DNA of 64,000 bases, from assembly GCA_020725385.1 (NCBI GenBank), contig DYFC01000034.1, positions 32,001 through 96,000 on the forward strand, in the 5' to 3' direction. The notes below the pieces were generated by a model, which saw only the letters and a program-made list of their open reading frames with translations, was not told the DNA's origin and ran no database searches. Positions 2,783-21,825 of this stretch are shown piece by piece (positions within the stretch are counted from its first letter, which is position 1; each line of letters starts with the position of its first letter). The position numbers were made by a program, and so were the translations under genes. The DNA comes from Nitrospira japonica. Its GTDB lineage: Bacteria; Nitrospirota; Thermodesulfovibrionia; Thermodesulfovibrionales; SM23-35.

Positions 2783-2807
2783 ATTAATTATGAAGATGCT
2801 GGAAATT

Positions 2808-3896: not shown

Positions 3897-3899
3897 ATT

Positions 3900-5672
3900 T
3901 TACCAGCTACCTCCACCGCCTCCGCCAAAACCTCCACCGGATGAGCCGCCACCAAACCCTCTGCCGGAACTAACCCCGCTTCCTCTTGGTGCGGAAAACA
4001 TTGCCGAAGCCATGCTTGAAGTTGCCGAACTTATTGAGCGCGAAAAACTATGGGGGTGGAATGTTCCGATGCCTGTGTGAGAAACATACCAGTTAGGCAT
4101 CTCCTGAAATATTCCCTCAAAAGCTTTTGCCCAGTTATCAACAACATCAAGTGCAATAGCATAAGGCAGAAATTTTGAAAAAAGATCCTTATCACCCATT
4201 CTTAAAAGTCTATCTTTCTCCGCACGGTTTAAAAATTCCCTGAAACCAAGAATTTCCATATAAGCCTTAGTACCTATTTTTGTTTTCACAGGCATTGCTT
4301 TGGCAAATAAGATAACAGGGATACCTGTCAACAATCCAGCTATCAGACCTGCCGGAGAATTTGATGCAACAGGGAGAATAAAACTACAAATAATTAAAAT
4401 TATTATGCCTATAATAATATAGGTTTGTCTAACCTTTTCGGGGCTTACAAGAAAATATTTCTTTGAGACAAGTTCTTCATATAAAGTCTTTTTTAGAAGA
4501 TTAAGATTTTTATAAAATTCATTCTTCATTTCAGAAACCATTCTTCCGGATACAGGCAAATCCGTAGTGAATATTTTATTCAAAAGCATCTTTTCAAATA
4601 TACTTAAATTATCATCTGGCTCTTTTATTCTTTTTAAATAATAATCTGTTGAATCAAACAAAATACCTTCTTTTTTTATTTCTTCAATCTGAATATATCC
4701 TTTTACTGCAAGACCCACAATTGTTGAAGTTATGTCTCTTGGATCAAGTTTTTCATCAATCAATGTGCCTGCTTCTCCAGGTGTTATATAATTGTTATTA
4801 AACTTTGGTGGCTCATACATAACTGTAATTGATTCTCTCACTTCAGGATCTCTACCTTTTTTTCTCCATAGGTTAAACATGATAATTAATGATATTAAAG
4901 GAACTATAAATACCCAGTTCTGCCTTAGATTCAAAAACCAGATTAATCTTTTTAATCTTGATGGCTGAACGACAAGCCCTTTATCCCAGCCAAAAGCTAC
5001 TGTGAATCCTTCACGTACTCCGAGATTTCTGACTGTTAGAAAATTTCCACTGTTGTTTGATGTCTCGAAACGACAGGCAGTTTCTTTTGATCCTGTAGCG
5101 CCAGTATAGCAAGCTGCCCACAAGTTATGGCTCTGTTTTGTTGTAGAAAGATTAATATTGGCTGAAGCTTCTTTTATTGGAGCCCACCAATAATTGCCTG
5201 TGACATTCCAATAAAGCTCATCATGATCTTCAAAAAATAAGATAGCGTTTTCAACATTGTAAGAAATTATATACGTTTGCAAACCATCAATATATTTTTG
5301 GGGATCGCCTATACGGATATTTATTACATTTCCTTTTCTACTAACATTGTATTTCCATTTGTTTCCGTTTCTATCGGTAACGGATAATATATCCACCGGT
5401 GTAATTATTGTTCCTCCTCTATCATCCGAATATCTGTAAGGTATTTCTCTATATATACCATGTTTTTGTCTATGAAATTCTACAGTAATATTTTCGGTAA
5501 CAGTAATTGAGGAATCCTCTTTAATTAAAATATCAGAATGAAATTTATTTATTGTAAAATCCTGGGCAAGTGCAGGGGTAATAATATTAATTGATAAAAA
5601 AATTATCAATAAGGCAAAAATTTTTAATAAAAAATAAAATTCATGAAAATAATTATTGTATTTGCTTTTCAT
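3900..5672 (-). CDS. DUF2207 family membrane protein
   Basis: HGIYREIP, DELYWNVTG, LPYAIAL, Gly-rich C-terminus ending GGGGGGSW; adjacent to lemA. Confidence 0.88.
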   Translation of the reverse strand: MKSKYNNYFHEFYFLLKIFALLIIFLSINIITPALAQDFTINKFHSDILIKEDSSITVTENITVEFHRQKHGIYREIPYRYSDDRGGTIITPVDILSVTDRNGNKWKYNVSRKGNVINIRIGDPQKYIDGLQTYIISYNVENAILFFEDHDELYWNVTGNYWWAPIKEASANINLSTTKQSHNLWAACYTGATGSKETACRFETSNNSGNFLTVRNLGVREGFTVAFGWDKGLVVQPSRLKRLIWFLNLRQNWVFIVPLISLIIMFNLWRKKGRDPEVRESITVMYEPPKFNNNYITPGEAGTLIDEKLDPRDITSTIVGLAVKGYIQIEEIKKEGILFDSTDYYLKRIKEPDDNLSIFEKMLLNKIFTTDLPVSGRMVSEMKNEFYKNLNLLKKTLYEELVSKKYFLVSPEKVRQTYIIIGIIILIICSFILPVASNSPAGLIAGLLTGIPVILFAKAMPVKTKIGTKAYMEILGFREFLNRAEKDRLLRMGDKDLFSKFLPYAIALDVVDNWAKAFEGIFQEMPNWYVSHTGIGTFHPHSFSRSISSATSSMASAMFSAPRGSGVSSGRGFGGGSSGGGFGGGGGGSW

Positions 5673-5688
5673 TATTTTGACTGTAGCA

Positions 5689-6249
5689 TTATGAAAAGCT
5701 AACCTTTACAGGCTTTCTTTCGACCTCAGGAGACTCAAGTTCAAAGAATTCTTCCTGCTTGAAATTAAATGTGCCAGCAATTATATTCGAAGGAAATGAC
5801 TCTATAGTTATATTGAAATCCCTTACAACAGCATTATAATATCTTCTTGCATATTCAATATTGTCTTCAAGTTCTTTGAGCTGGGACTGCAATTGTAAAA
5901 AATTTGTATTAGCTTTCAAATCAGGATAGGCCTCAGCGAGAGCAAAAAGACTTTTTAAAGTAGATGTAAGCATATTTTCAGCTTTTGCCTTATCTGCTGG
6001 AGATGAAGCATTCATTGCCATGTTTCTTGCTTTTGTTACATTCTCAAAAGTTGTTTTTTCATGAGAAGCATATCCTTTAACTGTTTCTACAAGGTTCGGA
6101 ACAAGATCATATCTCTTTTTTAATTGAACATCTATATCAGACCATGAAGATTTAACAGTATTACGGAGTTTTATCAATTTGTTATATATTGCTACACCAT
6201 AAAACAAAACAAGTAAAACTACACCAGAAATAATAAGTAAAGCAATCAT
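5689..6249 (-). CDS. lemA: LemA family protein
   Basis: [29 protein letters not shown] and [16 protein letters not shown] motifs; ATG at 6249 follows a GGGGG SD-like sequence. Confidence 0.92.
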
Positions 6250-6601
6250 CTTTCCCCCTAAGTTATTGTATATAAGCAAATCTATAAATTAATTGGTCAT
6301 TATGACCGAGCCCGGTTATAGCTATATCAATATGGATTATAAACCTTCTAGGAATATTCTCGAGCTCGTTAACTTTTTCTTCTATTTCAGGCATATTGAT
6401 AACTCCTCATTAATTTCATATTCTACCATAAAAAAACAACTTATCTTACAAATAAGCTGTTTGAACAAAAATACAAATAAACATGTAATAGGGTATAGGA
6501 AGAGCAGAGACCAAAGAACTGTAAAGCGTAAGGCATGAACACGCAAACAGCTAAAGAGTTAACGTGGGCAAGTAATACTTGAATCTGGATACTTGATTTT
6601 T

Positions 6602-8782
6602 TTAGTGCGTCTTACGATTTCCTTTGACTTCGAATTTAACCGAGTCAAGAATGTTTTCATGTTTATCAATTAATTGAACTGTGTGTTTTCCTGAAACAGG
6701 TTTTATTATCAGCGGCATTTTTGTATTCATATTTGTGTTATGTCCATCAAATACCCATGATATTTCATCGCTTAATGGATTTGCTTCAATAATGATTTTC
6801 TGTATTTCATCTGGAATGTCAGGATCAAGAGTTATTATAGTGCCATCAGGAGGATAAACAATTTGCGGGATAAAGTGTTTTTCATTTAAAGAAATTATGT
6901 GTCTTGAACTTTCTTTAAATGACGGTTCTGTGCCTTTAATAAACCATTCCTCTATTTCTAAAAGATTGGTTGAATCGATGAATACAGGCTTCTTTACTAT
7001 GCCATCAGGAGGTTTAATTTCTTCATCAATATTATCCTTATAGAGATAATTCATTATAGAAAGCCAAATAGGAGCAGCTCCTGTTATTCCTGTTACATTC
7101 CACATTGCCTCACCTGAAAAATTACCAACCCATACGCCTACTGTATATTTATTTGTATAACCAATGCACCAGTTGTCTCTCATATCTTTGCTTGTGCCTG
7201 TTTTTACCGAACTCCGGAATTTTGTATTCAAAGGGTTTTCTAAACTAAATGTATAAACTCTTGCCTCTCTGTCAGAAAGTATATCAGATATTATAAAAGC
7301 AGCCTCTGGTGAGAATACCCGAAATTTAGTATGTAAAACATCTTTATTTTGCAACCTTAAATTACTATATATGCCTCCATTTGCGAGCATTCGGTAAGCA
7401 TTAACAAGTTCATATAATGTAACATCAGCCGAGCCAAGAGCTAAAGAATGGCCGTAATAATCTGCATTTCTCAGATTTTTAAACCCCGATTCTTTAAGTT
7501 TCAGGACAAAATTTTCTATTCCAATCAGCGATAATGTTCTTACAGCAGGAACGTTTAATGATGAGGCAAGAGCAGTTCTTAAAGTAACCAGACCTTTAAA
7601 ATCATTTTCATAATTTTGTGGTTTATATATCCCATATTCTGTTGAAATATCAACAGGACTATCCGGGATAATTGATGCGGCAGTCAGCAAATGTTTATCT
7701 ATGCTTAGTGCGTATAGAAACGGTTTCAGGGTTGAACCTGCCTGTCTTTTTGCTCTTACACCGTCAACATATGGAGCAACCGAGCCTTTCCCGATGCTTC
7801 CAACATAAGCCAGTATATCGCCAGATTTATTTTCAACAACAATAGCTGCTCCATCATTCACATTCCTTGATTTAAGAGAAGAAATATGTTCTTCTAAAGT
7901 TTCGGAAACAAAACGCTGAATATCATAATCCAGAGTGGTAGAAATGGACTCTGTTCCAAAATAGGTAGGATTAATATTATTGTCATTCCTGTTTAAGAGA
8001 ATATGTGCTACATGCGGAGCAAGATTTTCTTTTTGTCTTACATAATATTTTCTATTGAATGTTTCTTTTATCTTTTCTTCAATTTTTTCTGGTTCAACGA
8101 CAGGCGTAAGGGATTGATTTAATAAATTAGCTCTATTAATAATTTTATCTATTTCCGCATTTGGTGAACGAATAAGTACAGCAAGAATAATTGATTCAAC
8201 GCTATTCAAACCCGATGGTTCTTTATTAAAAAGACATCTTGATGCAGCGGCAATTCCCTGCAACTCTCCTCTATATGTAACAAGATTTAGATAGGCTTCA
8301 AGTATTTCATCTTTTGACCAGATTTTCTCAATTTCAAGTGCTTCTTTCATCTGTCTCCATTTCTGTAAAACTGATCTGCCATTCTGCGCCGGTTTTAATT
8401 CTTCATTAAGAAGAGAAACAAGTTGCATTGTAATAGTGCTTGCCCCTCTTTTTGTTTTACCAGTAATATTTTTGATTAAGGTAGAAATAACAGAAAGCCA
8501 GTCAACACCGTAATGGCTGTAGAACCTTTTGTCTTCTGAATAAATAACAGCTTCTATCAGAGCTGGAGAGATGTCTTTTAAAGAAATCCATTCAAGTTTT
8601 CTTATATCGGGATTAAACCGCAATTCATGAATGATTTTCCCATTTCTGTCAAAAAGAAGTGCATCGGATGTAACATAAGAGTTTTTTACCTCCTGAAAAG
8701 AAGGCAAGGCATAAACATCAGAAACTACTAAAAGTATAAATAAGATAAGAAATTTATTTAAAATGAAAAATTTTTTTTTCAT
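6602..8782 (-). CDS. pbpC: Penicillin-binding protein 1C
   Basis: Transglycosylase motifs EDKRFY and GASTITMQL; transpeptidase motifs GSTLKPF, SLN, KTGTS; PBP1C-type C-terminal domain. Confidence 0.88.
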   Translation of the reverse strand: MKKKFFILNKFLILFILLVVSDVYALPSFQEVKNSYVTSDALLFDRNGKIIHELRFNPDIRKLEWISLKDISPALIEAVIYSEDKRFYSHYGVDWLSVISTLIKNITGKTKRGASTITMQLVSLLNEELKPAQNGRSVLQKWRQMKEALEIEKIWSKDEILEAYLNLVTYRGELQGIAAASRCLFNKEPSGLNSVESIILAVLIRSPNAEIDKIINRANLLNQSLTPVVEPEKIEEKIKETFNRKYYVRQKENLAPHVAHILLNRNDNNINPTYFGTESISTTLDYDIQRFVSETLEEHISSLKSRNVNDGAAIVVENKSGDILAYVGSIGKGSVAPYVDGVRAKRQAGSTLKPFLYALSIDKHLLTAASIIPDSPVDISTEYGIYKPQNYENDFKGLVTLRTALASSLNVPAVRTLSLIGIENFVLKLKESGFKNLRNADYYGHSLALGSADVTLYELVNAYRMLANGGIYSNLRLQNKDVLHTKFRVFSPEAAFIISDILSDREARVYTFSLENPLNTKFRSSVKTGTSKDMRDNWCIGYTNKYTVGVWVGNFSGEAMWNVTGITGAAPIWLSIMNYLYKDNIDEEIKPPDGIVKKPVFIDSTNLLEIEEWFIKGTEPSFKESSRHIISLNEKHFIPQIVYPPDGTIITLDPDIPDEIQKIIIEANPLSDEISWVFDGHNTNMNTKMPLIIKPVSGKHTVQLIDKHENILDSVKFEVKGNRKTH

Positions 8783-8803: not shown

Positions 8804-10231
8804 TTAAGTTATTAATTTTCTCGTGTCCCAGAATTTCCATTTTAGGTAGTCATTAATGCCTTTAGCTGCTTTTCTGCCTGCACCCATCGCAAGAATTACT
8901 GTTGCAGCGCCTGTAACAATATCACCTCCTGCAAATATGCCGGGTTTTGAAGTCATTCCTGTTTCATGGTCAGCGATTATATAATTTTTCTTGTTAAGAG
9001 CAAGATCTGGTATTGTGCTGGTTAGCAATGTATTCGACCTTGTTCCTATAGCAGGTATTGCAACATCTATATCAAGCTTAAACTCGCTTCCTTTTATTGG
9101 TACAGGTTTCCTCCTTCCAGAAGCATCAGGCTCGCCAAGTTCCATTTTTATACATTCAACAGCACAAACATTTCCTTTGCCATCATCAATGAATTTTAAT
9201 GGAGCAGTGAGAAACATGAATTCAATTCCTTCTTCTTTTGCGTGATGTATTTCTGCTTTCCTTGCAGGCATTTCTTCTTCAGAGCGACGGTAAATGAGAT
9301 ATACTTTTTCCGAGCCAAGCCTTAAAGCAACTCTTGCAGCATCCATTGCAACATTGCCGCCTCCAAATACAGCTACATTTTTTCCTTTTTTAATAGGTGT
9401 ATCATATTCGGGAAAAAGATAAGCTTTCATAAGATTTGCTCTTGTAAGAAATTCATTCGCAGAATAAATTCCATTTAAGTTTTCACCCGGAATTCCAAGA
9501 AAAACAGGCAGTCCCGCGCCTGCCCCAATATAACATGCATCATAACCCTGTTTATTCATGAGGTCATCTATAGTAAAAAGTTTCCCTATTACCGAATTAA
9601 GTCTTATCTCAACTCCGAGCTTTTTTATATATTCAACTTCTTTTTCAACTATAACCTTTGGCAATCTGAATTCCGGTATCCCGTAAATAAGGACTCCCCC
9701 GGGTTTGTGGAGTGCTTCAAACAATGTAACCCGATGTCCTTCTTTTATAAGATCTGCTGCGCATGAAAGTCCTCCGGGTCCGGAGCCGATTACAGCAACT
9801 TTTCTTCCTGTTGATTTAGGTTTTTCCGGTATTTGTATTTCACCGCTTTCACGTTCAAAATCAGCGACAAATCTTTCAAGATTACCAATTGCAACTGGCT
9901 CTCCTTTTTTTCCAAGAATACATCTTGATTCGCACTGTATTTCTTGAGGACAAACTCTTCCACATACAGCAGGCATTGCATTTTCTTCTTTTATTTTCCA
10001 TGCTGCTTCTATAAATTTTCCTTGTTTAATTAATTTAATAAATGCAGGTATATCAATCGATACAGGGCATCCTTCCCTGCATGTAGGTTTTGCACAATTT
10101 AAACAACGGGAAGCTTCTTCAACAGCTTCTTTAGGAGAATAACCAAAAGGCACTTCATCAAAATTTCTTGCTCTTATTATAGGGTCCTGTTCTCTCATCC
10201 TGATTCTGCTTTTTTGTTTCTTTTCTTCCAT
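8804..10231 (-). CDS. nfnB: NfnB/SudA-like large subunit of NADH-dependent ferredoxin:NADP+ oxidoreductase (GltD-like)
   Basis: EASRCLNC..C..GCP, CGRVCPQE.QCE, GSGPGGL, YGIPEFRLPK, GGGNVAMD, AGGDIVTGAATVILAMGAGR; overlaps the small subunit gene. Confidence 0.88.
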   Translation of the reverse strand: MEEKKQKSRIRMREQDPIIRARNFDEVPFGYSPKEAVEEASRCLNCAKPTCREGCPVSIDIPAFIKLIKQGKFIEAAWKIKEENAMPAVCGRVCPQEIQCESRCILGKKGEPVAIGNLERFVADFERESGEIQIPEKPKSTGRKVAVIGSGPGGLSCAADLIKEGHRVTLFEALHKPGGVLIYGIPEFRLPKVIVEKEVEYIKKLGVEIRLNSVIGKLFTIDDLMNKQGYDACYIGAGAGLPVFLGIPGENLNGIYSANEFLTRANLMKAYLFPEYDTPIKKGKNVAVFGGGNVAMDAARVALRLGSEKVYLIYRRSEEEMPARKAEIHHAKEEGIEFMFLTAPLKFIDDGKGNVCAVECIKMELGEPDASGRRKPVPIKGSEFKLDIDVAIPAIGTRSNTLLTSTIPDLALNKKNYIIADHETGMTSKPGIFAGGDIVTGAATVILAMGAGRKAAKGINDYLKWKFWDTRKLIT

Positions 10232-11061
10232 TATTTCACCCCTGCTTTATAGTGTTCCATGGCAATTTTTTCTTCATCAATATACATTCTTTGCCTTGAC
10301 ATTAAGAGATTGAAATCAACCTTATGTCCATCGAATTCAGGTCCATCAACACATGCAAATTTTGTTTCACCGCCGACTTCAACCCTGCATGCTCCACACA
10401 TTCCTGTTGCATCAACCATTATGGAATTCAGACTGACAATAGTTTTAACATTATGTTTTTGAGTAGTAATGCATACAAATTTCATCATTATCGCAGGTCC
10501 AATTGCATAAACGAGTTTTACACTTTTATCTTCATGCAAAATTTCATCAACAGGCACGGTAACAACAGCTTTTCTTCCGTAAGAACCATCATCGGTTACA
10601 ACTATCAATTCATCCGATACACTTCTCATTTTGTCTTCCCAGAAAATGAGTTCTTTCATTCTTGCTCCAATTATAGATATTACAGTATTGCCTGCTTCTT
10701 TTAATGCACGTGCAATAGGATAAACAGGTGCGATTCCAACACCGCCTCCAACACAAATAACTTTGCCAAAATTTTCAATATGCGAAGGAATTCCGAGAGG
10801 ACCTATAACATCTGTAATATAGTCACCTTCGTTTAATGTAGAAAGCTCATGGGTAGTTTTACCGATTTTTTGGAAAACAGTTGTAATAGTTCCTTTTTCT
10901 CTGTCAAAGTCTGCTATTGTAAGGGGAATTCTTTCTCCTTTTTCATGAATGCGAAGCACAAAAAAATTGCCTGCCTTTGCTTTTTGTGCTATTTCTTTTG
11001 CATCAATTACAAATAGAACTACAGCATCAGACAAGATCTGTTTTTCGAGGATTTTGAACAT
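10231..11061 (-). CDS. nfnA: NfnA/SudB-like small subunit (PyrK-like FAD/NAD-binding, [2Fe-2S])
   Basis: GERIPLTIAD, GGGVGIAP, MVDATGMCGACRV..ACVDGPEFDGH (Asp-ligated 2Fe-2S motif). Confidence 0.88.
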   Translation of the reverse strand: MFKILEKQILSDAVVLFVIDAKEIAQKAKAGNFFVLRIHEKGERIPLTIADFDREKGTITTVFQKIGKTTHELSTLNEGDYITDVIGPLGIPSHIENFGKVICVGGGVGIAPVYPIARALKEAGNTVISIIGARMKELIFWEDKMRSVSDELIVVTDDGSYGRKAVVTVPVDEILHEDKSVKLVYAIGPAIMMKFVCITTQKHNVKTIVSLNSIMVDATGMCGACRVEVGGETKFACVDGPEFDGHKVDFNLLMSRQRMYIDEEKIAMEHYKAGVK

Positions 11062-11361: not shown

Positions 11362-11733
11362 ATGCCTGGAACGTATTTGCCAACAGAATATTTACCGGTT
11401 TTGATTTTTATACTCGTTGCAGAGGCGTTTGGTTTTGGCGCACTGTTAATAGGAGTAGTATTCAGACCTAAAAAGCCTTACCTTGAAAAATTACTGCCTT
11501 ATGAATCAGGTATTGATCCCAAAGGAGAACCTCGCACAAGATTTGCAATTCGTTTTTATATAATAGCAATGCTTTTTGTGGTTTTTGATGTTGAAGCAAT
11601 TTTTATTTATCCATGGGCAATTGTATTTGATAAGATCGGCATATTTGCATTTATTGAAATGGTTATCTTTATTCTGATACTTTTAGTCGGATACATCTAT
11701 GCCTGGAAAAAAGAAGCTTTTGTCTGGGATTAA
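11362..11733 (+). CDS. nuoA: NADH-quinone oxidoreductase subunit A
   Basis: PYESGIDP, FYIIAMLFVVFDVEAIFIYPWA. Confidence 0.95.
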   Translation: MPGTYLPTEYLPVLIFILVAEAFGFGALLIGVVFRPKKPYLEKLLPYESGIDPKGEPRTRFAIRFYIIAMLFVVFDVEAIFIYPWAIVFDKIGIFAFIEMVIFILILLVGYIYAWKKEAFVWD

Positions 11734-11758
11734 AATACCTAACAGGGGGTTATTGTAG

Positions 11759-12277
11759 ATGCTGGATACATCGAGTTTAGGCCTGATTCAAGTGCAGCAG
11801 GATGTTAAGATACTGCCTCCAAATGCTATTATTACGACTTTTGACAAAATTATTAACTGGGGCAGGCTTTCATCTATATGGCCTATGACATTCGGACTTG
11901 CTTGATGTGCTATTGAGATGATGGCCGTGGGCGCATCACATTATGATTTTGACAGGTTCGGTGTTATTTTTAGAGCTTCACCCCGACAGGCAGATTGCAT
12001 TATAATCGCAGGCACAGTTACTAAGAAAATGGCTCCAATTGTAAGAAGAGTTTATGATCAAATGCCTGAGCCGAGATATGTTATCTCTGTTGGAAGTTGT
12101 GCATGCACCGGAGGGATTTTCAAAACATACAGCACAGTACAGGGTTGCGATACTTTCCTGCCGGTTGATGTTTTTATCCCTGGTTGCCCTCCAAGACCCG
12201 AGACATTTCTTGAAGGTGTAATGTTGCTTCAGGAAAAAATAAGAAAAGAACAGGCGAGGTGGAGTCCATGGCGGTAA
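11759..12277 (+). CDS. nuoB: NADH-quinone oxidoreductase subunit B, probable selenoprotein (TGA at 11903-11905 read as Sec49)
   Basis: The frame from ATG 11759 reads ...[43 protein letters not shown]. The TGA occupies the first Cys of the conserved CC motif and is followed by a hairpin. Confidence 0.88.
11903..11941 (+). promoter_or_regulatory. Candidate bacterial SECIS element of nuoB
   Basis: TGATG-GCC-[GTG]-GGC-G-CATCA stem-loop; the loop G lies 22 nt after the UGA. Confidence 0.6.
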
Positions 12278-12849
12278 CCGAAGTTGTAGCAGGTTTGTAT
12301 CCTGCCGGAATAGAGCAGGAAAAAATAGCTGAAATGATAAAAGAAAAATTTCCCGAGCAGGTAATTGATGTTACCAATTTCAGGGATCAGGTTGCTGTTA
12401 TTATAAAGAAAAATCAGAGTTTTTCAATCCTTAAATATCTCCATGATGAACCAACTCTTAGTTTTGACCATCTTAGAGATCTAACTGCTGTTGACTGGTC
12501 TAATAAAAAAGAAGTAAGATTTGAAGTCGTTTATAATCTTTTATCAACAAAATACCGTCATATACTAAGAATAAAAGTACAGGTTCCGGAAAATGACGTG
12601 AAAATTGCTTCGGTTGTGCCGATATGGGCAGGAGCAAATTGGCATGAACGTGAATGTTTTGATATGTTCGGAATTCAATTTACAGGTCATCCCGATTTAA
12701 GAAGAATTTTAATGCCAGAGGACTGGGAAGGTTATCCATTGAGAAAAGATTATCCTTTAAAAGGATATGAAGGAGATAAAGACTGGCCTGGATTTATTCA
12801 AGTTATTAAAAGATCTCAAGAACTGAAGGAGTTTGAGTGGCATGATTAA
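12268..12849 (+). CDS. nuoC: NADH-quinone oxidoreductase subunit C
   Basis: [47 protein letters not shown]. Confidence 0.95.
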
Positions 12850-14311
12850 GATGCAGGAGCCTGAAAAGATTTTTGAGACGAGAGAACTGAATGTTAATAT
12901 GGGGCCACAGCATCCGGCTACCCATGGGGTATTAAGAGTTGTATTGGACCTTGATGGTGAAACTATTGTCAGACTTACTCCATACGTTGGTTATCTGCAT
13001 CGTGGTATAGAAAAGCTCGGTGAAAGTCTGAGTTATTTTCAGGCATTGCCTTTAACAGACAGGATGGACTATGTCTCAGCAATGTCCAATAATATAGGTT
13101 ATTGCGTAGCTGTTGAAAAACTTTATGGAATAGAACCTCCGCCAAGAGCAAAATTCATAAGAACAATTGTTGGAGAGTTGTCAAGAATTTCAAATCATCT
13201 CTTATGGCTTGCAACACACGCTCTTGACATCGGCGCAATGACAGTCTTTCTTTATTGTTTCAGGGAAAGAGAATGGATACTTGAATTATTTGAGATGATA
13301 TGCGGTGCAAGACTTACCGTTACATATCCAAGAGTTGGTGGAGTAAGAAACGATATATCCAAAGAATTTATAGATCATCTCGTAAAATTCCTTGCAGAAT
13401 TTCCTTCAAGAATACTTGAATATGAAACATTAATTGATCAGAATAGAATCTGGCTTCAAAGGACTGTAGGTATTGGTGTTATCTCTGCTGAAGAAGCCAT
13501 TAACTGGGGAATGACAGGACCTACATTAAGAGGTTCTGGAATTCCGTATGATATTAGAAAATTTATGCCTTATGATGCCTATGATCAGGTTGAATTTGAA
13601 ATTCCTATAGGTACCGCAGGCGATACATATGATAGATACCGTTGCAGAATGCTTGAAATGAGGCAGTCTGTAAAAATAATCATACAATGTCTCGAGAAAC
13701 TTCCTGCCGGTCCTGTAATGGCTGATGCTCCAAAGTTTGTACTTCCTCCAAAAGACAAAATGTTAATAATCACACATCCTGTAAATGAAATTGCATATTT
13801 CATAGATGAAAAAGCATGTAAAGGATGTGGAATGTGTTTAAGAGCATGTCCTGCAAAAGCAATAACAGGTGAGAAAAAGAAACCGCATAAAATTGATCAG
13901 GCTTTATGTCTGCAATGTGCCACCTGTTTTGTTACATGTAAGTTCAAGGCTTTAAAAATAGTTCCGGGAGGAAAAGGACAGACAGAGGAGAAACTTGTAG
14001 AGCTTGCAGCGCAGCCTGTTTCGGATGAACTAAAACAGGCTCAAGAAGCACTCGTTGCTCATTTTGATTTCATAAAGAAAGGACCCAAGGTTCCTGAAGG
14101 TGAAGTATATGTAGCAACAGAAGTCCCGAAAGGAGAGCTTGGATTCTATTTTGTCAGTGATGGTACGCATAAACCATATAGAATGCGTGTTAGGTCGCCA
14201 TCCTTTATTCATGCAGGATGTCTTGAAAGACTCTGTAAAGGGCATTTGGTTGCGGATGTTATAGCTAATATTGGAACGATTGATATCGTTCTTGGAGAGT
14301 GTGACAGGTAG
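12842..14311 (+). CDS. nuoD: NADH-quinone oxidoreductase subunit D with an internal 2x[4Fe-4S] ferredoxin domain
   Basis: [52 protein letters not shown]; insert contains [12 protein letters not shown] and [12 protein letters not shown]. Confidence 0.93.
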
Positions 14312-14314
14312 AAT

Positions 14315-15373
14315 ATGAATATGGCAAATGTAATAAGTCCTACAACTGTTGATGCTTTAATTAAATTTGGCATTGATGTAGCTATTATTCTTCTTAAAAT
14401 AGTAATAGTTCTTGCGGTTGGCTTACTTCATGTAGCATATGCAACATATTTCGAACGTAAAGTAATAGGTCATATGCAGGTAAGACTTGGACCAATGAGG
14501 GTTGGACCTCACGGTCTTCTTCAGCCTTTTGCTGATGGTATAAAACTTTTCTTTAAAGAAGACATAATCCCTGCTCAGGCTGATAAAGTAGTCTTTTATA
14601 TTGCTCCTATTATTTTTATGGCTGCTGCAATGGTTAATTTGTCCGTAATTCCATTTGATGCAAATTTTGTAATTGCTGATATTAATGTTGGATTGCTTTT
14701 CATCTTTGCGATGGCTGGAGTTGGTGTTTATGGAATATTTATATCAGGATGGGCATCAAATTCAAAATATGCATTCATGGGAGGACTTAGATCATCTGCA
14801 CAGGTTATAAGTTATGAAATTGCGATGGGTCTCAGCCTTGTTGGTGTTATGATGATGGCGGGTTCTTTAAATCTCTCGGATATAATCAGGGCACAAGGTG
14901 AATCAATATTTGGCATGTACGCTATCCCCCAGTTTATAGGATTTATAGTATTTGTAATTGCTGCAGTTGCAGAAACAAACAGAACACCGTTTGATTTGCC
15001 CGAAGCCGAAAGCGAATTAGTAGCAGGTTATTTTACAGAATATAGTAGTTTCAGATTTGCTCTATTCTTTCTTGGCGAATATATAGCAATGATTCTTATG
15101 GCGTCATTATGCACAATATGTTTCCTCGGTGGATGGACATTGCCATGGTATGTTTTGAAAATTTTCCCGTTCCTTAGTTATGTGCCGGGAGTTGTATGGT
15201 TTGTGTTGAAAGTTTATGCATTTTTCTTCTTCTATTACTGGATAAGAGCAACAGTACCAAGATACAGATACGACCAGTTTATGGCTATAGGCTGGAAGAT
15301 TTTAATTCCGGTTGCGATAGGAAATATATTATTAACAGGTCTTGTGAAAATTATTTTGAAAGAGGTATTGTAG
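14315..15373 (+). CDS. nuoH: NADH-quinone oxidoreductase subunit H
   Basis: ERKVIGHMQVRLGP, GLLQPFADGIKL, AETNRTPFDLPEAESELVAGY. Confidence 0.96.
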   Translation: MNMANVISPTTVDALIKFGIDVAIILLKIVIVLAVGLLHVAYATYFERKVIGHMQVRLGPMRVGPHGLLQPFADGIKLFFKEDIIPAQADKVVFYIAPIIFMAAAMVNLSVIPFDANFVIADINVGLLFIFAMAGVGVYGIFISGWASNSKYAFMGGLRSSAQVISYEIAMGLSLVGVMMMAGSLNLSDIIRAQGESIFGMYAIPQFIGFIVFVIAAVAETNRTPFDLPEAESELVAGYFTEYSSFRFALFFLGEYIAMILMASLCTICFLGGWTLPWYVLKIFPFLSYVPGVVWFVLKVYAFFFFYYWIRATVPRYRYDQFMAIGWKILIPVAIGNILLTGLVKIILKEVL

Positions 15374-15374
15374 C

Positions 15375-15899
15375 GTGACATTCAAACATTTCATTAAAAC
15401 AATTACCTTTATAGAAATATTGAAAGGTATGGCTTTAACATTAAGAAGGATGTTTTCTAAGGCAGTTACAATACAATATCCCGATGAAAGAAGAAAGATT
15501 GCGCCTGGTTTTAGAGGGCAACATGCTCTTTCAAAACGTGGCGGGAAAGCAAAATGTGTTGGTTGCGGATTATGCGCTACAATATGCCCTTCGCAATGTA
15601 TAAGCATAACGAGAGAAAAAGGTCAGGTTACAAAATATCAAATAGAGCTTCTAAGATGTATATATTGTGGATTTTGTGTTGAAGCTTGCCCGTATGGAGC
15701 TATCTCTCTAACTGAGAATTATGAATATTCTTCTTACAACAAACAGGATTTAATGATGACAAAGGAAAAATTATTATCAAACTGGGATAAATATATGCCC
15801 GGTACAAAAGGCGAAGAATATTACAAAAAATTCTGGAGGCCTATGTCAGAGGATTTCGGTACACCTCCCGGACAGGCAATGTATGGAGGTAAAAGATAA
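15375..15899 (+). CDS. nuoI: NADH-quinone oxidoreductase subunit I
   Basis: TIQYPDE, FRGQH, CVGCGLCATICP and CIYCGFCVEACP. Confidence 0.95.
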   Translation: MTFKHFIKTITFIEILKGMALTLRRMFSKAVTIQYPDERRKIAPGFRGQHALSKRGGKAKCVGCGLCATICPSQCISITREKGQVTKYQIELLRCIYCGFCVEACPYGAISLTENYEYSSYNKQDLMMTKEKLLSNWDKYMPGTKGEEYYKKFWRPMSEDFGTPPGQAMYGGKR

Positions 15900-16411
15900 T
15901 GGTATCCATAGGCTTTTTTATATATTTTGCTTTTGCAATTGTAGTTCTTTCATTGCTTGTAGTAACAAGAAGGAATCCTGTTCACAGTGTTTTATGGATG
16001 CTTCTTTTGTTTTTCCATATAGCAGGAGTATATTTGTTCCTTAACGCTGAATTTATGGCTGCAATACAGGTCATTGTATATGCAGGAGGTATCCTTGTTT
16101 TATTCTTATTTGTTGTTCTTTTAATGAACTTACGAGAAGAGTTATCAATAGGTAAATACACCACATTTGGCCCGACAGGTTTTACTTTCGCTTTAGGACT
16201 TTTTGTAGCTGTTTCTATGGCACTGAGTTCTTTTATAGCTGCGCCTCCCGGCAAATATTCAATAGATTTAATCAAGCAGGAGACACATGTAAAAGCACTC
16301 GGTAAATTGTTATATACAGAGTTTATTTATCCTTTTGAAATTGCTTCTTTGATTCTTTTAGTTGCAATGATTGGAGCAATAGTCCTTGCGAAAAGGAGGC
16401 TTAAGAGTTAA
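15899..16411 (+). CDS. nuoJ: NADH-quinone oxidoreductase subunit J
   Basis: NPVHS, LNAEFMAAIQVIVYAGGILVLFLFVVLL, PFEIASLILLVAMIGAI. Confidence 0.95.
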   Translation: MVSIGFFIYFAFAIVVLSLLVVTRRNPVHSVLWMLLLFFHIAGVYLFLNAEFMAAIQVIVYAGGILVLFLFVVLLMNLREELSIGKYTTFGPTGFTFALGLFVAVSMALSSFIAAPPGKYSIDLIKQETHVKALGKLLYTEFIYPFEIASLILLVAMIGAIVLAKRRLKS

Positions 16412-16412
16412 G

Positions 16413-16718
16413 ATGGCGGTTCCATTAAGCTGGTACATGTTATTGAGTCTTGCTGTATTTTCAATCGGTGTGTTTGGTTTTCTTTCAAGAAGAAACATTA
16501 TTATTATGTTAATGTCTATAGAATTAATGTTAAACGGAGTAAATATTAATTTAATCGCTCTCAGTCATTATATTCAGGATTTAAGGGGCCAGATACTTGC
16601 GTTTTTTGTGATAGCGGTTGCAGCAGCCGAGGCGGCGATTGGACTTGCGATTGTGATTGCGATGTTCAGGAACAGGGCAACTGCGCATGTTGATGAAATC
16701 AAAGAGATGCAGGGTTGA
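16413..16718 (+). CDS. nuoK: NADH-quinone oxidoreductase subunit K
   Basis: RRNIIIMLMSIELMLNGVN, AVAAAEAAIGLA; ATG at 16413. Confidence 0.95.
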   Translation: MAVPLSWYMLLSLAVFSIGVFGFLSRRNIIIMLMSIELMLNGVNINLIALSHYIQDLRGQILAFFVIAVAAAEAAIGLAIVIAMFRNRATAHVDEIKEMQG

Positions 16719-16747
16719 TTAACAAATGAGTATAGAGGAATAAGAAT

Positions 16748-18832
16748 ATGGCAAATATGGAATTACAATGGTATCATGTTTTAATACCTTTTCTTCCGCT
16801 AACCGGTTTTATAATTAATATTCTACTTGGCAAAGAAGTAACCAGATATAAAGCTCACTGGTTTGCTGTTTCTTCTGTTTTTGGTTCATGGCTATGTTCG
16901 CTCGCTACATTACAGGATGTTCTTGGAGGCAAGATAATCGATGCCGATCTTTATACATGGATACTTTCAGGCACATTTAAGGTAGGGGTGGGATTTTTAA
17001 TTGATCCTTTAACTGCAGTTATGCTCATTGTTGTTACAACCTGTGCAACTTTGATTCATATTTATGCAATAGGTTATATGCATGGTGACACAGGTTATTA
17101 CAGATTTTTCTCATATCTGAATCTTTTCACATTCTGTATGCTTATGCTTGTAATGGGCAATAACTTCCTCCAGCTTTATTTCGGATGGGAAGGTGTAGGA
17201 CTTTGCTCTTATTTCTTGATTGGATATTATTTCAATAAAAAATCTGCTGCAGATGCTGGAAAGAAAGCCTTCATAGTCAATAGATTCGGCGACTTTGGTT
17301 TTGGAATCGGTGTTTTTATGGTCTTTTTAACATTTGGAACTTTACACTATGCTGATGTTTTTGCGAATGTTAGCAGTATTGCCGGTAAAACAGTCAATTT
17401 TCTTGGTTTAAATGTTGACCTTCCAACATTGATTGCACTATTACTTTTTTGCGGTGCGGTTGGAAAATCAGCCCAGATTCCATTACATGTCTGGCTTCCA
17501 GATGCAATGGAAGGTCCCACACCTGTCAGCGCATTAATCCATGCTGCCACAATGGTTACAGCGGGTGTATTTCTCGTTGCAAGATGCAATCCTATTTTCA
17601 ACCTTTCTGAAATTGCAATGAATACAGTCGCAATTATCGGGGCGTTGACAATGTTCTTTGCAGCAACAATCGCTATAACGCAAAATGATATAAAAAGAAT
17701 TATAGCTTTTTCTACATGTAGTCACTTAGGTTATATGTTTCTTGCCTGTGGAGTTGGAGCTTATGCAGCAGGAATATTCCATCTTTACACCCATGCATTT
17801 TTCAAAGCACTTCTATTTCTTGCAGCAGGTAGTGTAATTCATGCAGTTCATACAAATAATATTCAGTTTATGGGTGGATTGAAAAAATATATGCCTATTA
17901 CATACGCGGTTTTCGTTATTGCTGGGTTAAGTGCCGGCGGATTTCCCGGTCTTTCCGGATTCTTCAGCAAGGATGAGATTATATGGTCTGCATATGCTTC
18001 CCATTCAAGCGTAGGTAAATTTGTATGGATACTCGCACTTGCCGGAGCATTCTTTACACCTTTCTATACATTTAGATTAATATTCAGGACTTTCTTCGGA
18101 GAATATCGTGGTGGACTCGAGGCAGAAGAAGCAGCGACTCATGCACATAGCAGTTCACATGGTTCGGGGCATAGTTCACATGGTGCCGGTCATGATTCTC
18201 ACGGTTCAGGACACGACCCGCACGGACATGATTCATCTCATGGTTCCGGACATGATTCACACGGAGGACATGGACATGGTCCCCATGAATCACCTTATAT
18301 TATGACAGTGCCCTTGATGTTTCTTGCTGTTGGAGCAATAGCTGCCGGCTGGGTTGGCATTCCGCCTTTACTCGGGGGAGGAAATCATTTTGCTCATTTC
18401 TTACAGCCTGTTGTAGGCCACCCGGAATTTCATGGCACTCATGCTGAAGAATGGGGTGTAATGATATTATCAACCACAATTGCACTAATTGGCCTGGGAC
18501 TTGCAGCATTTATGTATTTAAGAAAAACCGATTTACCCGAGAGAATTTCAAAACAATTCTCATTGTTATATAAAATTTTATATAACAAATATTATGTGGA
18601 TGAATTTTATAATCTTACTATTGTGCAGCCGACTCTTAAACTTGCAAATAAAGTGCTTGTAGGATTTACAGATGCCAAGATAATTGAAGGTATAGTTAAT
18701 GGTGTGCCTAACTTAATAGGAATATTCAGCCAGAAACTTAGAAGGCTTCAAACAGGAATAGCGCATCATTATGCAATATTTATGGCAGCAGGTGCAGTTT
18801 TTATAGTTGCACTGGTAATTTTATTGAGTTAA
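16748..18832 (+). CDS. nuoL: NADH-quinone oxidoreductase subunit L (His/Gly/Ser-rich loop)
   Basis: GWEGVGLCSY, KAFIVNRFGD, GKSAQIPLHVWLPDAMEGPTPVSALIHAATMVTAGV. Confidence 0.96.
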   Translation: MANMELQWYHVLIPFLPLTGFIINILLGKEVTRYKAHWFAVSSVFGSWLCSLATLQDVLGGKIIDADLYTWILSGTFKVGVGFLIDPLTAVMLIVVTTCATLIHIYAIGYMHGDTGYYRFFSYLNLFTFCMLMLVMGNNFLQLYFGWEGVGLCSYFLIGYYFNKKSAADAGKKAFIVNRFGDFGFGIGVFMVFLTFGTLHYADVFANVSSIAGKTVNFLGLNVDLPTLIALLLFCGAVGKSAQIPLHVWLPDAMEGPTPVSALIHAATMVTAGVFLVARCNPIFNLSEIAMNTVAIIGALTMFFAATIAITQNDIKRIIAFSTCSHLGYMFLACGVGAYAAGIFHLYTHAFFKALLFLAAGSVIHAVHTNNIQFMGGLKKYMPITYAVFVIAGLSAGGFPGLSGFFSKDEIIWSAYASHSSVGKFVWILALAGAFFTPFYTFRLIFRTFFGEYRGGLEAEEAATHAHSSSHGSGHSSHGAGHDSHGSGHDPHGHDSSHGSGHDSHGGHGHGPHESPYIMTVPLMFLAVGAIAAGWVGIPPLLGGGNHFAHFLQPVVGHPEFHGTHAEEWGVMILSTTIALIGLGLAAFMYLRKTDLPERISKQFSLLYKILYNKYYVDEFYNLTIVQPTLKLANKVLVGFTDAKIIEGIVNGVPNLIGIFSQKLRRLQTGIAHHYAIFMAAGAVFIVALVILLS

Positions 18833-18859
18833 AAAGGATAAAACTCTTAGAGGAGAACA

Positions 18860-20401
18860 ATGGAACAGGTAATAATGAATAATCTGAATTACCCCATACT
18901 TAGCACCGTTATATTTCTACCAGTTTTGGGCGCGCTTCTAATTCTCATTAACAGAAGATCATGGGAGACCCTGACAAAATGGATAGCATTGGGAACGAGC
19001 ATTTTAACTTTTATAGCTTCAATTCCTTTATTTACTCATTTTGACAAGACCACCCATAAGATGCAATTTGTAGAGAGATTTTCATGGATTCCCAACTGGA
19101 ATATTTATTATTTTCTCGGAGTTGATGGCATAAGCGTTCTATTTGTTCTTCTTTCGACACTATGCGCTATTCTTTGTGTATTAATATCATGGACAGCAGT
19201 TACTAATAAAATTAAAGAGTTTTATATAGCTATTTTATTAACAACATCTTTTATGATCGGTGTCTTCTGCTCCCTGGATTTTTTCCTTTTTTATCTTTTC
19301 TGGGAAGCGATGCTTATACCTATGTTCCTGATCATCGGTGTCTGGGGCGGACCAAATCGTATATATGCTGCAATTAAGTTCTTCCTTTATACATTAGTAG
19401 GAAGTGTCCTGATGCTTGTTGGAATAATCGTTCTTTATCTTTATTCAGGTAAAACATTTGATATTCTTACAATGATGACAAAGAATTATCCTTATACAAT
19501 GCAAATATGGCTTTTCTGGGCATTTTTTGCAGCTTTTGCTGTTAAGGTGCCAATGTGGCCAGTGCATACATGGTTGCCCGATGCACATACCGAAGCTCCA
19601 ACAGCAGGTTCGGTTATTCTTGCTGCTGTCCTTATTAAAATGGGTGCTTATGGTTTCCTGAGATTTTCATTGCCCCTGCTTCCCGAAGCATCAAAAGCAA
19701 TGACACCTGTTATGTTAACGTTATCAGTTATTGCAATTATTTATGGAGCTATCATATGTTTAGGCCAGACAGACCTGAAAAGACTTATTGCATACAGTTC
19801 GGTAAGTCACATGGGATTTGTAACACTCGGTATTTTTGCACTAAATACACAGGGAGTTGAAGGCGGAATACTACAAATGCTCAATCATGGTGTAGTAACA
19901 GGAGCTCTCTTTTTATCTGTAGGTATTGTTTATGAAAGAACACATACAAGATTAATTGCTGATTATGGTGGTCTTGCTACCGAGATGCCAATATATTCAT
20001 CATTTTTTATGGTGTTTACCTTAGCAGCAATTGGGCTTCCTGCAACAAATGGTTTTATAGGTGAATTCCTGATCCTTTTGGGTGGATTCGCTGCAAATAA
20101 ATGGGCTGGAGTCCTTGCTTGCACTGGAATAATCATAGGTGCAGGTTATATGCTCTGGCTATATCAAAGAGTATTTTTTATGGAAGTAAATCCCAAGCTT
20201 CATGGACTGGTTGATATGAATGTAAGGGAAACTATAGCATTATTGCCCATGTTAATACTCGTATTCTGGATAGGTGTTTATCCTAATTCATTCCTTAGCT
20301 TTATGCATACTTCTGTGCAACATCTTTTAGAGAGAGTTAATAGTGGCGGGATTGCCCAGGAAGCACAGATAGCTAAAAATATTATGGAGGTAATCAGATG
20401 A
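18860..20401 (+). CDS. nuoM: NADH-quinone oxidoreductase subunit M
   Basis: FWEAMLIPM, KVPMWPVHTWLPDAHTEAPTAGS, DLKRLIAYSSVSHMG. Confidence 0.96.
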   Translation: MEQVIMNNLNYPILSTVIFLPVLGALLILINRRSWETLTKWIALGTSILTFIASIPLFTHFDKTTHKMQFVERFSWIPNWNIYYFLGVDGISVLFVLLSTLCAILCVLISWTAVTNKIKEFYIAILLTTSFMIGVFCSLDFFLFYLFWEAMLIPMFLIIGVWGGPNRIYAAIKFFLYTLVGSVLMLVGIIVLYLYSGKTFDILTMMTKNYPYTMQIWLFWAFFAAFAVKVPMWPVHTWLPDAHTEAPTAGSVILAAVLIKMGAYGFLRFSLPLLPEASKAMTPVMLTLSVIAIIYGAIICLGQTDLKRLIAYSSVSHMGFVTLGIFALNTQGVEGGILQMLNHGVVTGALFLSVGIVYERTHTRLIADYGGLATEMPIYSSFFMVFTLAAIGLPATNGFIGEFLILLGGFAANKWAGVLACTGIIIGAGYMLWLYQRVFFMEVNPKLHGLVDMNVRETIALLPMLILVFWIGVYPNSFLSFMHTSVQHLLERVNSGGIAQEAQIAKNIMEVIR

Positions 20402-21825
20402 ATTTCCCCCTTCCTGATCTTAATCCTGTAATGCCTGAAATACTGATGACTGCATTTGCATTAATTGTGCTTTTACTTGATTTGATTGTGAAAAAGAAAG
20501 AAGCTGTAGCTGTAATTAGCATTGCAGGCACAGCAATAGTATCACTAAGTCTTCTAAATACATCAGGCTCTACATTCGGGGGAATGTATATAGCTGACGG
20601 ATATAGCACATTCTTTAAAATCATATTCTTTATAAATGTCATATTAACGATATTGATTTCAATTAAATATATTGCTGTAGAAAGAGTTAATTATGGTGAA
20701 TATTATAGTTTAATACTTTTTTCGACAGTTGGTATGATGATAATGGCCTCAGCTTCTGACCTGATAACGCTTTACTTAGGTCTTGAATTAATGGCATTAA
20801 GCACTTATGTATTAGCCGGATTTATAAGACATAATCTTAAATCGACTGAATCTGCACTTAAATATTTTCTTCTGGGAGCTTTTTCATCAGGATTCTTGCT
20901 CTATGGTATTTCTATTGTATATGGACTTACAGGTACAACGGATATAAAGGCAATAGCAACATTCATAACAGAAAGAGGATTAAGCGGAAATTTATCGCTT
21001 CTTCTTGCGATTGGAATGCTTACTGTTGCGTTTGGATTTAAGATTGCTGCGGCTCCATTTCATATGTGGGCTCCCGATGTATATGAAGGAGCTCCAACTT
21101 CAATAACAGCATTCATGTCAGTTGGCCCAAAAGCAGCTGGTTTTGCTGTTATTGGAAGAGTTTTTATGATAGCTTTTGCAGCTGTAAAAGCAGACTGGGC
21201 AACTATCTTGATCCCGATATCAATTCTTACAATGGCAGTTGGTAACATTGTAGCATTATCACAGACGAACATAAAGAGAATGCTCGCATATTCTTCTATA
21301 GCCCATGCTGGATATGCATTGCTTGGTATAATTACAGCCAACTCAGAGGGTATATCAAGCATGATGAATTATCTCTTTATCTATGCTTTCATGAATATCG
21401 GAGCATTTGCAGTTATCATAATGCTTAGAAGCGAAGGCATAAAAGGTGAAGATTTAAGCGACTATGAAGGGCTTTCAAAAACACATCCTATGGCAGCGGC
21501 TTTAATGCTGATTTTTATGTTTTCATTGACCGGAATCCCACCAACAGCAGGTTTTATTGGTAAATTATATATTTTCATGGCTGCAATTAATGCAGGATAT
21601 ACATGGCTTGTTATTATAGCTGTCATATTTAGCGCTATTTCAGCATACTTTTATTTACGAGTTGTAATGTATATGTATATGAGGGATCCAAAAACTGAAC
21701 TACCTTTAACTACATCCTTTACAAATGGATTAGCCCTTGCAGTTACAACAGCAGCAGTATTGATCATAGGTGTTTTCCCGACAATGCTTGTGGAATTTGC
21801 CCGTGCTGCATTGAAGAGTTTTTAG
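20398..21825 (+). CDS. nuoN: NADH-quinone oxidoreductase subunit N
   Basis: ESALKYFLLG, FKIAAAPFHMWAPDVYEGAP, KRMLAYSSIAHAGY. Confidence 0.96.
   Translation: MNFPLPDLNPVMPEILMTAFALIVLLLDLIVKKKEAVAVISIAGTAIVSLSLLNTSGSTFGGMYIADGYSTFFKIIFFINVILTILISIKYIAVERVNYGEYYSLILFSTVGMMIMASASDLITLYLGLELMALSTYVLAGFIRHNLKSTESALKYFLLGAFSSGFLLYGISIVYGLTGTTDIKAIATFITERGLSGNLSLLLAIGMLTVAFGFKIAAAPFHMWAPDVYEGAPTSITAFMSVGPKAAGFAVIGRVFMIAFAAVKADWATILIPISILTMAVGNIVALSQTNIKRMLAYSSIAHAGYALLGIITANSEGISSMMNYLFIYAFMNIGAFAVIIMLRSEGIKGEDLSDYEGLSKTHPMAAALMLIFMFSLTGIPPTAGFIGKLYIFMAAINAGYTWLVIIAVIFSAISAYFYLRVVMYMYMRDPKTELPLTTSFTNGLALAVTTAAVLIIGVFPTMLVEFARAALKSF

Follow-up and report, generated by a model that had tools for sequence, protein, structure and literature searches.

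The stretch of DNA analysed here, referred to as the window, comprises 64,000 nt of a Nitrospira japonica assembly (GCA_020725385.1, contig DYFC01000034.1, positions 32,001-96,000, forward strand). A complex I operon with the genes nuoA, B, C, D, H, I, J, K, L, M and N occupies positions 11362-21825 of the window on the plus strand. Its nuoD encodes a protein with an inserted domain that contains two ferredoxin-type cluster motifs, and its nuoB contains an in-frame TGA. Open reading frames (ORFs) and Pfam matches identify nuoA (11362..11733) and nuoC (12259..12849, 196 aa), while nuoB (11759..12277) is obtained by reading through the TGA. The gene nuoD is located at 12833..14311 and encodes 492 aa when read from TTG 12833; the start is probably ATG 12842, which gives 489 aa and matches the database representatives. 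It is directly followed by nuoH (14315..15373), then by nuoI (15375..15899; 174 aa with two 4Fe-4S motifs, C61-C71 and C95-C105) and by the membrane arm genes nuoJ, nuoK, nuoL, nuoM and nuoN (15899..21825), all on the plus strand. By ORFs and Pfam, no nuoE, nuoF or nuoG is present between nuoD and nuoH of the operon, as an earlier first-pass annotation of this DNA had also noted.

The host protein resembles canonical NuoD (Nqo4, 49-kDa, NDUFS2) in its full-length Complex1_49kDa domain, its quinone-site residues and its place in the operon between nuoC and nuoH, and its best PDB matches have E-values from 1e-134 to 1e-93. The match to Complex1_49kDa (PF00346) is split by the insert and scores 384.8 bits (cut-off 24). 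Across 54 aligned sequences, H31, Y80 and D132 of the quinone site do not vary; by an offset of +7 to 2fug_4 they are H38, Y87 and D139 of T. thermophilus Nqo4, whose roles are described in an excerpt of PMC6992706. As these residues are invariant, the host subunit appears to be an ordinary, working NuoD. Unlike canonical NuoD, which has 7-8 residues at the site, it contains a domain of 90 aa with two cluster motifs, and residues 312-393 are covered by none of the 54 PDB sequences matched to NuoD. Canonical NuoD is not known to bind a cofactor.

The bounds of the insert were set by alignment with 49 insertless relatives of 396-400 aa, in which it is gapped. It spans exactly 90 residues, aa 312-401 (13766..14035). 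The first-pass annotation had described a NuoD of about 490 aa with about 90 extra residues, which agrees with this, and had placed them at 13760-14045 (aa 310-404), i.e. within 3 residues of the aligned bounds. It had also taken the flanks to be normally adjacent; they are indeed close, but insertless relatives read PPKDYIL-KDMEHLIHQF, so that 7-8 residues separate them. The insert consists of an N-linker (312-322), a Fer4 dicluster core (323-375) and a C-linker of 26 residues (376-401) that is predicted to be helical. On aa 322-373, three Pfam families exceed their cut-offs, Fer4_6 (38.5 vs 25), Fer4 (36.9 vs 21.1) and Fer4_7 (29.7 vs 27), while Fer4_21 (33.4 vs 35), Fer4_10 and Fer4_9 fall below theirs. 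The two CxxCxxCxxxC motifs named in the earlier annotation can be read directly: C329/C332/C335/C339, followed by P340 (13817..13849), and C359/C362/C365/C369, followed by KFK (13907..13939). They are about 30 residues apart, which is the pattern of a 2x[4Fe-4S] ferredoxin. Between them lies a basic loop, residues G346-356 (13868..13900), a candidate docking surface.

The insert is present in 72 of the best 120 database clusters, and each of these keeps all 8 cysteines (72/72), so that the homologs do preserve the putative ligands, as the earlier claim of a ferredoxin domain implies. At 27 species-level genome loci an insert-bearing nuoD is found within the same operon. Both insert junctions are spanned by a Logan contig of run X1 (record 4, 13523-14245, 0 differences), a run that may be the source sample of the window itself; contigs of other runs bridge the upstream junction (X2, record 11) and the downstream junction (X6, record 18). 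Together with the 72 clusters, this speaks clearly against an assembly chimera. Among the 22 sequencing runs listed as holders, none is of RNA. The ratio of nonsynonymous to synonymous substitution rates (dN/dS), computed by the Nei-Gojobori method for 300 pairs among 25 sequences, has a median of 0.084 in the insert, 0.067 in the Fer4 core, 0.138 in the linkers and 0.040 in the NuoD flanks; these values are rough, as dS is about 1.5 and near saturation. The insert is thus under purifying selection. The Fer4 core has a net charge of +5 to +8 (median +7, 69 sequences), and in the loop between the motifs G346, E347, K348, K349, H352, I354 and Q356 are invariant (G-E-K-K-x-P-H-x-I-x-Q). We consider it very likely that the insert is a genuine Fe-S domain, maintained by selection and located at the corner between NuoD and NuoI.

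One of the 27 loci is an exception: in L045 the insert-bearing nuoD (region 6001-7437) is split into three ORFs of 95, 136 and 197 aa and nuoC is short, reflecting either a decaying operon or assembly errors.

Searches with aa 308-404 point to the origin of the domain. After the NuoD rows, 48 of the 48 non-NuoD matches listed are proteins with PF01512, PF10589 and Fer4, i.e. Complex1_51K, NADH_4Fe-4S and Fer4; they are 57-74% identical to the insert, and the named ones are annotated as "NuoF" of Nitrospirae or Nitrospirota. In addition, 37 genome loci match the insert alone, and in 34 of these (the exceptions are L063, L065 and L080) the match falls at the C-terminus of a protein of about 590-670 aa. 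Pfam finds the HydB architecture (Complex1_51K, NADH_4Fe-4S and Fer4) in 4/4 of these insert-matching proteins searched. The best paralog in the genome of the window itself is the C-terminus of a 592-aa HydB-like protein on contig C27, with 54.5% identity over 55 aa and the same C-K-F-K-A ending as the NuoD insert. PDB sequences matching the insert in a single stretch are the C-terminal domains of RnfB, HydB (7p5h_B, 7q4v_B, 8a6t_B), HoxF, NfnB and a NuoF-like chain; the HydB/NuoF-like matches also include 9bov_B, 8oh5_B and 9n5u_B. The searches thus bear out the resemblance to the C-terminal ferredoxin domain of HydB/NuoF that had been noticed earlier.

A tree of inserts and HydB C-terminal domains, which the first-pass annotation had proposed, places 68 NuoD inserts on one side of a branch and 48 HydB domains on the other, with a support of 100 in the Shimodaira-Hasegawa-like approximate likelihood ratio test (SH-aLRT), from a short alignment of 81 columns. 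The inserts therefore group together, which fits one single capture by NuoD of a HydB/NuoF-like C-terminal 2x[4Fe-4S] domain from its own phylum. NuoD has no PF01512 or PF10589 match, i.e. the Complex1_51K domain that binds flavin mononucleotide (FMN) and NADH is not in the same polypeptide, and it is apparently the terminal domain alone of such a flavoprotein that was copied into NuoD.

The distribution of the insert was surveyed in 301 genomes of the order, from 13 families, with the genome of the window as G000. Presence was scored manually by E-value and, for matches listed with these data, also by query range and ORF length; the counts refer to the matches listed, beyond which 294 more exist. 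A full-length match covering the insert is found in 41/55 genomes of the same family (G000 included). The remaining genomes of the family have insertless-type matches (10), ambiguous fragments (2) or no match (2), and genus g15 contains both forms. Outside the family, 2 genomes carry the insert, G058 and G160, both from one other family, and nearly all of the 12 other families have insertless-type matches. In the ESM Atlas, one cluster with Fer4 and Complex1_49kDa (50 members, Nitrospirota) is among the nearest clusters. When the insert columns are left out and a tree is built from the NuoD flanks alone, 65 insert-bearing rows group in a single clade (SH-aLRT 97); P0050 and the pair P0042+P0060, which also bear the insert, stand beside insertless rows (SH-aLRT 99 and 96).

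The first-pass annotation had suggested that the insert may replace the missing NuoEFG, which implies that the insert and the loss of nuoEFG occur together. This does not hold, as all related loci, with or without the insert, run from nuoD straight into nuoH. Insertless examples are found both in other Nitrospirota (L037, L039, L041, L042) and in the same family (L093, L095, L096, L099). The full order nuoABCDHIJKLM(N) without EFG is seen in the insertless L093, L095, L099, L037, L039 and L041, and L042 can be read to nuoI; the 27 insert-bearing loci have the order nuoABCDHIJKLMN without EFG as far as each contig extends. Co-occurrence of the insert with EFG loss is thus rejected. The EFG-less form is the baseline to which the insert has been added, and close relatives do without it.

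The position of the insert was modelled with NuoD, NuoI and NuoB, one alignment per chain and four [4Fe-4S] clusters, using the Cys-type NuoB homolog of L014. With NuoI as the partner, the interaction prediction score from aligned errors (ipSAE) is 0.87, compared with 0.54 for the best control. The ipSAE mark is reached by 58/80 solved complexes and 2/110 mismatched pairs, in a calibration that used other alignments and no small molecules. At least 95% of the contacts are shared between runs, and the predicted local distance difference test (pLDDT) of the partner is at least 80. NuoD and NuoI are a solved textbook pair, so the pass may reflect memory and shows likeness only; it is the list of contacts that is informative. 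The NuoD residues that touch NuoI in the model include the junction residues 303-310, 314 and 316, the insert residues 340-341, 343 and 357-364, and residues 407, 410-411 and 414-415 of the helix right after the insert. Residue 414 is placed on NuoI 66, 69, 70 and 104 and residue 410 on NuoI 106, i.e. on the loops around C67 and C105. The insert is accordingly modelled near NuoI and not far from it, as would be needed for the electron transfer proposed earlier.

In the usual ferredoxin topology, the last cysteine of one motif completes the cluster of the other motif. The cluster of C359/C362/C365 and C339 would then be the inner one, its loops sitting against NuoI in the model, and the cluster of C329/C332/C335 and C369 would point outward. 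The GEKK..H loop between the motifs is absent from the modelled contacts with NuoI.

The closest sequence relatives of the insert are the C-terminal domains of HydB/NuoF-like proteins (7p5h_B, 7q4v_B, 8a6t_B, 7t2r_B, 8oh5_B, 9bov_B, 9n5u_B), with the common pattern Y.I....C.GCG.C...CP..AI.G....PH.ID...C..C..C...C. In HydB the domain forms the untethered C-terminus of an FMN flavoprotein, and it is mobile in HydABC structures, whereas in NuoD it is internal, tethered at both ends and part of a membrane-complex subunit without a flavin module. According to Feng et al. (PMC8880783), the C-terminal domain of HydB can be aligned with the fold of NdhI, and its clusters B3/B4 are the proposed ferredoxin site of the bifurcating hydrogenase.

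The ferredoxin:plastoquinone oxidoreductase NDH-1 of cyanobacteria and chloroplasts likewise has eleven core subunits without NuoEFG. Its donor enters at the NdhI/NdhH corner, and the insert is modelled at the homologous corner. However, NDH-1 uses a soluble 2Fe-2S ferredoxin and has the additional subunits NdhS, V and O, while here a 4Fe-4S dicluster is built covalently into NuoD. According to an excerpt of PMC6992706, ferredoxin binds NDH-1L on NdhI and a C-terminal fragment of NdhH, 9.6 Å from N6a, and K315 and K321 of NdhH contact ferredoxin in cyanobacterial NDH-1 according to one of PMC7021789. NdhH has 394 aa, and aa 296 of NuoD aligns with NdhH 289. Counted from the shared C-terminus rather than aligned, K315/K321 would fall at about aa 413-421 of NuoD (F-I-K-K-G-P-K-V-P), 10-20 residues past the insertion point and on the helix-loop that is modelled against NuoI. 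By analogy, the insertion point would lie just before the stretch of NuoD that contacts ferredoxin in cyanobacterial NDH-1. A domain proposed to face ferredoxin in its parent enzyme would thus now sit at the corner of complex I where ferredoxin docks.

The operon nuoABCDHIJKLMN is also that of 11-subunit enzymes of anaerobes such as Desulfitobacterium, as reported in an excerpt of PMC11238625. Unlike these, the present enzyme would have two added clusters, with the plain NuoD of the Desulfitobacterium type judged from the text of PMC11238625, in which the term NuoD does not occur. This 2024 paper describes the electron donor of 11-subunit complex I-like enzymes as still open. In the 14-subunit complex I, the clusters N4 and N5 of NuoG (Nqo3) feed N6a in NuoI; the insert may play an analogous role, as the last clusters before NuoI. 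NuoG differs in being a separate subunit bound to NuoEF, and homology between it and the insert was not found. The first-pass annotation knew of no complex I with this architecture, and a literature search, with supplementary files outside its scope, found no published NuoD with a ferredoxin-domain insert. Both the core enzyme and the domain are known; what is new is their fusion, at a position that is informative for the mechanism.

We suggest that the insert is a basic, tethered domain with two clusters, a relay or docking site that prolongs the NuoI wire outward and serves as electron entry or exit of the 11-subunit enzyme, with a probability of roughly 0.6. A HydB/NuoF-like C-terminal domain would have entered the surface loop that immediately precedes the NuoD helix lying on the cluster loops of NuoI. 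The insert most likely binds two [4Fe-4S] clusters, and the wire of the Q-module would then grow from three clusters to five. Electrons would pass from a donor to the outer and then the inner insert cluster, to the NuoI clusters, to N2 in NuoB and finally to menaquinone. The donor would be of low potential, either ferredoxin or an oxidoreductase acting directly. The reverse direction is equally possible, in which case the insert would be the exit for ferredoxin reduction driven by the proton motive force. The sequence data show the anatomy, conservation, origin and distribution of the insert, and its place beside NuoI is modelled, whereas we infer cluster loading, transfer along the path, partner and direction; that the insert lies on the catalytic path at all seems somewhat more probable than the opposite. 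Soluble clostridial-type ferredoxins are acidic while the Fer4 core is basic, which argues for a fixed relay with a basic docking face for an acidic donor and not for a mimic of the donor.

Several observations weigh against this proposal. The 10 insertless genomes of the same family, and nearly all of the 12 other families, have their NuoD in the same EFG-less operon, so the enzyme works without the insert, and electrons must be able to enter by another route as well. The presence and absence of the insert need at least 3 changes on the flank tree, so the insert is dispensable or mobile; given a single origin, these changes are losses or recombinational transfers, and the insert would have been lost or moved at least twice. 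The geometry has its limits too: the output of the NuoD+NuoI+NuoB model is a list of contacts with an expected error below 8 Å and not a set of coordinates, and the place of K315/K321 is a count. A single-chain AlphaFold2 model of NuoD, from a 54-row alignment, was discarded as too poor for geometry (mean pLDDT 63.4). Finally, NfnAB genes stand upstream of insertless operons of the family as well (L094, L095).

These observations are best weighed together with three other explanations. In one, the insert is a dedicated adaptor, a plug by which a flavoprotein (the NfnAB-like pair or a HydB/NuoEF-like module) is wired directly to the complex and stands in for the N-module, with no free ferredoxin involved. 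Genes for NfnB- and NfnA-like proteins do lie divergently upstream of nuo in 17/27 insert-bearing loci. In the window they are an NfnB/GltD-like gene (8804-10231, minus strand, 475 aa, Fer4_20 and Pyr_redox_2) and an NfnA-like gene (10231-11061, minus strand, 276 aa, DHODB_Fe-S_bind and NAD_binding_1), divergent from nuoA. PntAB occupies the upstream place in 4 insert-bearing loci, a trio of NuoE-like, HydB-like and FdhA-like genes is found in L027, and the insert itself is descended from the exit domain of a flavoprotein. The genome of the window also encodes a 538-aa NuoF-like protein without that C-terminal domain (C23), but such proteins are common in general. Since L094 and L095 share the NfnAB pair, it does not track the insert but is tied to the family, and its adjacency is weakened as a clue to the partner. 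We regard a dedicated adaptor as unlikely.

It is similarly doubtful that the clusters are an off-path accessory, either stabilising a NuoD/NuoI corner that is bare without NuoG or acting as a redox sensor or electron store like N7. Close relatives without the insert are in line with such a role, and complex I does have an off-path cluster, N7, which according to PMC10068793 helps to maintain structure. However, the modelled position is in line with the NuoI wire and at the ferredoxin site of NDH-1, and both the cysteine ligands and the exposed basic loop are strongly constrained, which a structural filler would not need. An artefact, be it an assembly chimera or a functionless recent fragment in decay, would be suggested by the oddity of the architecture alone. 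It is practically negligible, as the 72 clusters come from several sources, the 27 loci belong to different species, contigs of other runs bridge the junctions and the frame is intact with a dN/dS of 0.08. The relay or docking domain is therefore the explanation that we retain.

It can also be speculated, with little confidence, that the insert is a permanent socket for swappable NfnAB-like or HydB/NuoEF-like modules. The former exit domain of a bifurcating flavoprotein would be fixed on NuoD, and the modules docking there would feed low-potential electrons derived from NAD(P)H, H2 or formate into the pump without free ferredoxin, or the pump would run in reverse to reduce ferredoxin, and N2 would be retuned by a selenocysteine in NuoB in some species, this one included. 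If the relay proposal is correct, the insert would mark the point of electron entry and give a testable prediction of the donor site for the whole class of 11-subunit enzymes without NuoEFG. A natural comparison with and without the insert is available inside one bacterial family. The protein would further be a clear example of an Fe-S relay module recruited by the core of complex I, and so would be relevant to the origin of the N-module.

The second unusual feature of the operon is found in nuoB, whose product starts MLDTSS. Its TGA (11903-11905, in the context FGLA-TGA-CAIEMM) stands at the first cysteine of the CC pair of the homologs and is a candidate selenocysteine codon; both cysteines of this pair are reported to ligate cluster N2 in the structures of T. 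thermophilus Nqo6. Among 41 loci scanned, 32 have the nuoB motif, with TGA in 8/32 and TGT or TGC in 24/32. The TGA loci besides the window are L013, L018, L020, L030, L031, L034, L035 and L042, and seven further related loci all have a Cys codon (7/7). L042 combines the TGA with an insertless NuoD, so the TGA and the insert are independent of each other. The 48 codons upstream of the TGA are open in 9/9 TGA sequences and under purifying selection, with proportions of nonsynonymous (pN) and synonymous (pS) differences of 0.128 and 0.759, respectively, and Logan contigs of the runs X2 and X9 contain the nuoB TGA with 0 differences. Gene callers shorten such genes, with four 119-aa forms and one 118-aa form among the 120 NuoB relatives listed.

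The genome of the window has selenocysteine machinery (a tRNA-Sec, SelA and two SelB-wing_3 matches); SelA is present in 5/5 TGA genomes and equally in 5/5 Cys genomes tested. A candidate stem-loop of the selenocysteine insertion sequence (SECIS) type, at 11903..11938 on the plus strand, includes the TGA in a 9-bp stem (11903-11911 paired with 11930-11938). As read from the alignment the stem is fully paired in 8/9 TGA sequences, and it is the minimum-free-energy fold in 7. Across those 8 sequences its 3' arm shows no variation at synonymous sites, unlike the flanking sequence, and the covariation is modest, 11/500 shuffles reaching it. In E. coli fdhF, the UGA is in the lower stem of the SECIS. 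An Rfam scan of 11700-12300 returned no SECIS family and only three chance-level matches. A term search of two reviews of prokaryotic selenoproteins gave no entry for "Nuo" or "complex I", only NqrE, and no NuoB selenoprotein was found in the literature search, which left supplementary files outside its scope. We consider NuoB of this organism likely to be a selenoprotein. If so, a selenocysteine at the N2 ligand position of NuoB would define a selenoprotein family that these reviews do not contain under the terms searched.

The remaining observations concern other genes of the operon, its neighbours and the rest of the genome. Five Complex1_51K matches are present in the genome of the window, one RnfC and four HydB/NuoF-like proteins, and the genes of the latter are on other contigs than the operon, each beside a NuoE-like gene. 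The best Complex1_51K match is the RnfC-like protein, a 435-aa ORF of locus L010 (4626-8725, minus strand; G000 contig C31:131000-147000). It is followed by ORFs of 331, 196, 204 and 197 aa, and this rnf-type cluster shares its contig with nuoD, at a distance of about 93 kb. From the ORF sizes and the Pfam match, the genome would thus contain a second ferredoxin-linked membrane complex. A second NuoD-like gene, a 531-aa ORF of NuoC-D-type length, is found on G000 contig C60 (locus L011, 7216-8811, minus strand) and adjoins ORFs of 480, 716 and 257 aa; this complex looks like a membrane-bound hydrogenase (Ech/Hyf-like).

Upstream of nuo, L012 has only a larger GltD-like ORF in the place of NfnAB. 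The occurrence of NfnAB with and without the insert suggests a family-wide link of pyridine-nucleotide/ferredoxin transhydrogenation with the nuo complex. In the insert-bearing L027 the region 2100-4404 (minus strand), divergent from nuoA, encodes the NuoE-like (151 aa), HydB-like (619 aa) and molybdopterin/FdhA-like (691+ aa) proteins, and the C-terminal domain of the HydB-like protein matches the NuoD insert. This trio is a soluble NuoEFG-like or formate-dehydrogenase module beside an EFG-less nuo operon.

NuoI is 4-5 residues shorter between its cluster motifs than the insertless forms outside the family. NuoC has an N-terminal extension of about 17 aa compared with insertless Nitrospirota outside the family; it is also present in the insertless L095 and L097 and was rejected as a feature co-evolving with the insert. 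Lastly, aa 465-516 of NuoL (18140-18295) form a run of 52 residues rich in His, Gly and Ser, HAHSSSHGSGHSSHG...GHGHGPHESP. The length of NuoL ranges from 637 to 700 aa among related loci, the loop therefore being variable, and the run possibly binds metal.

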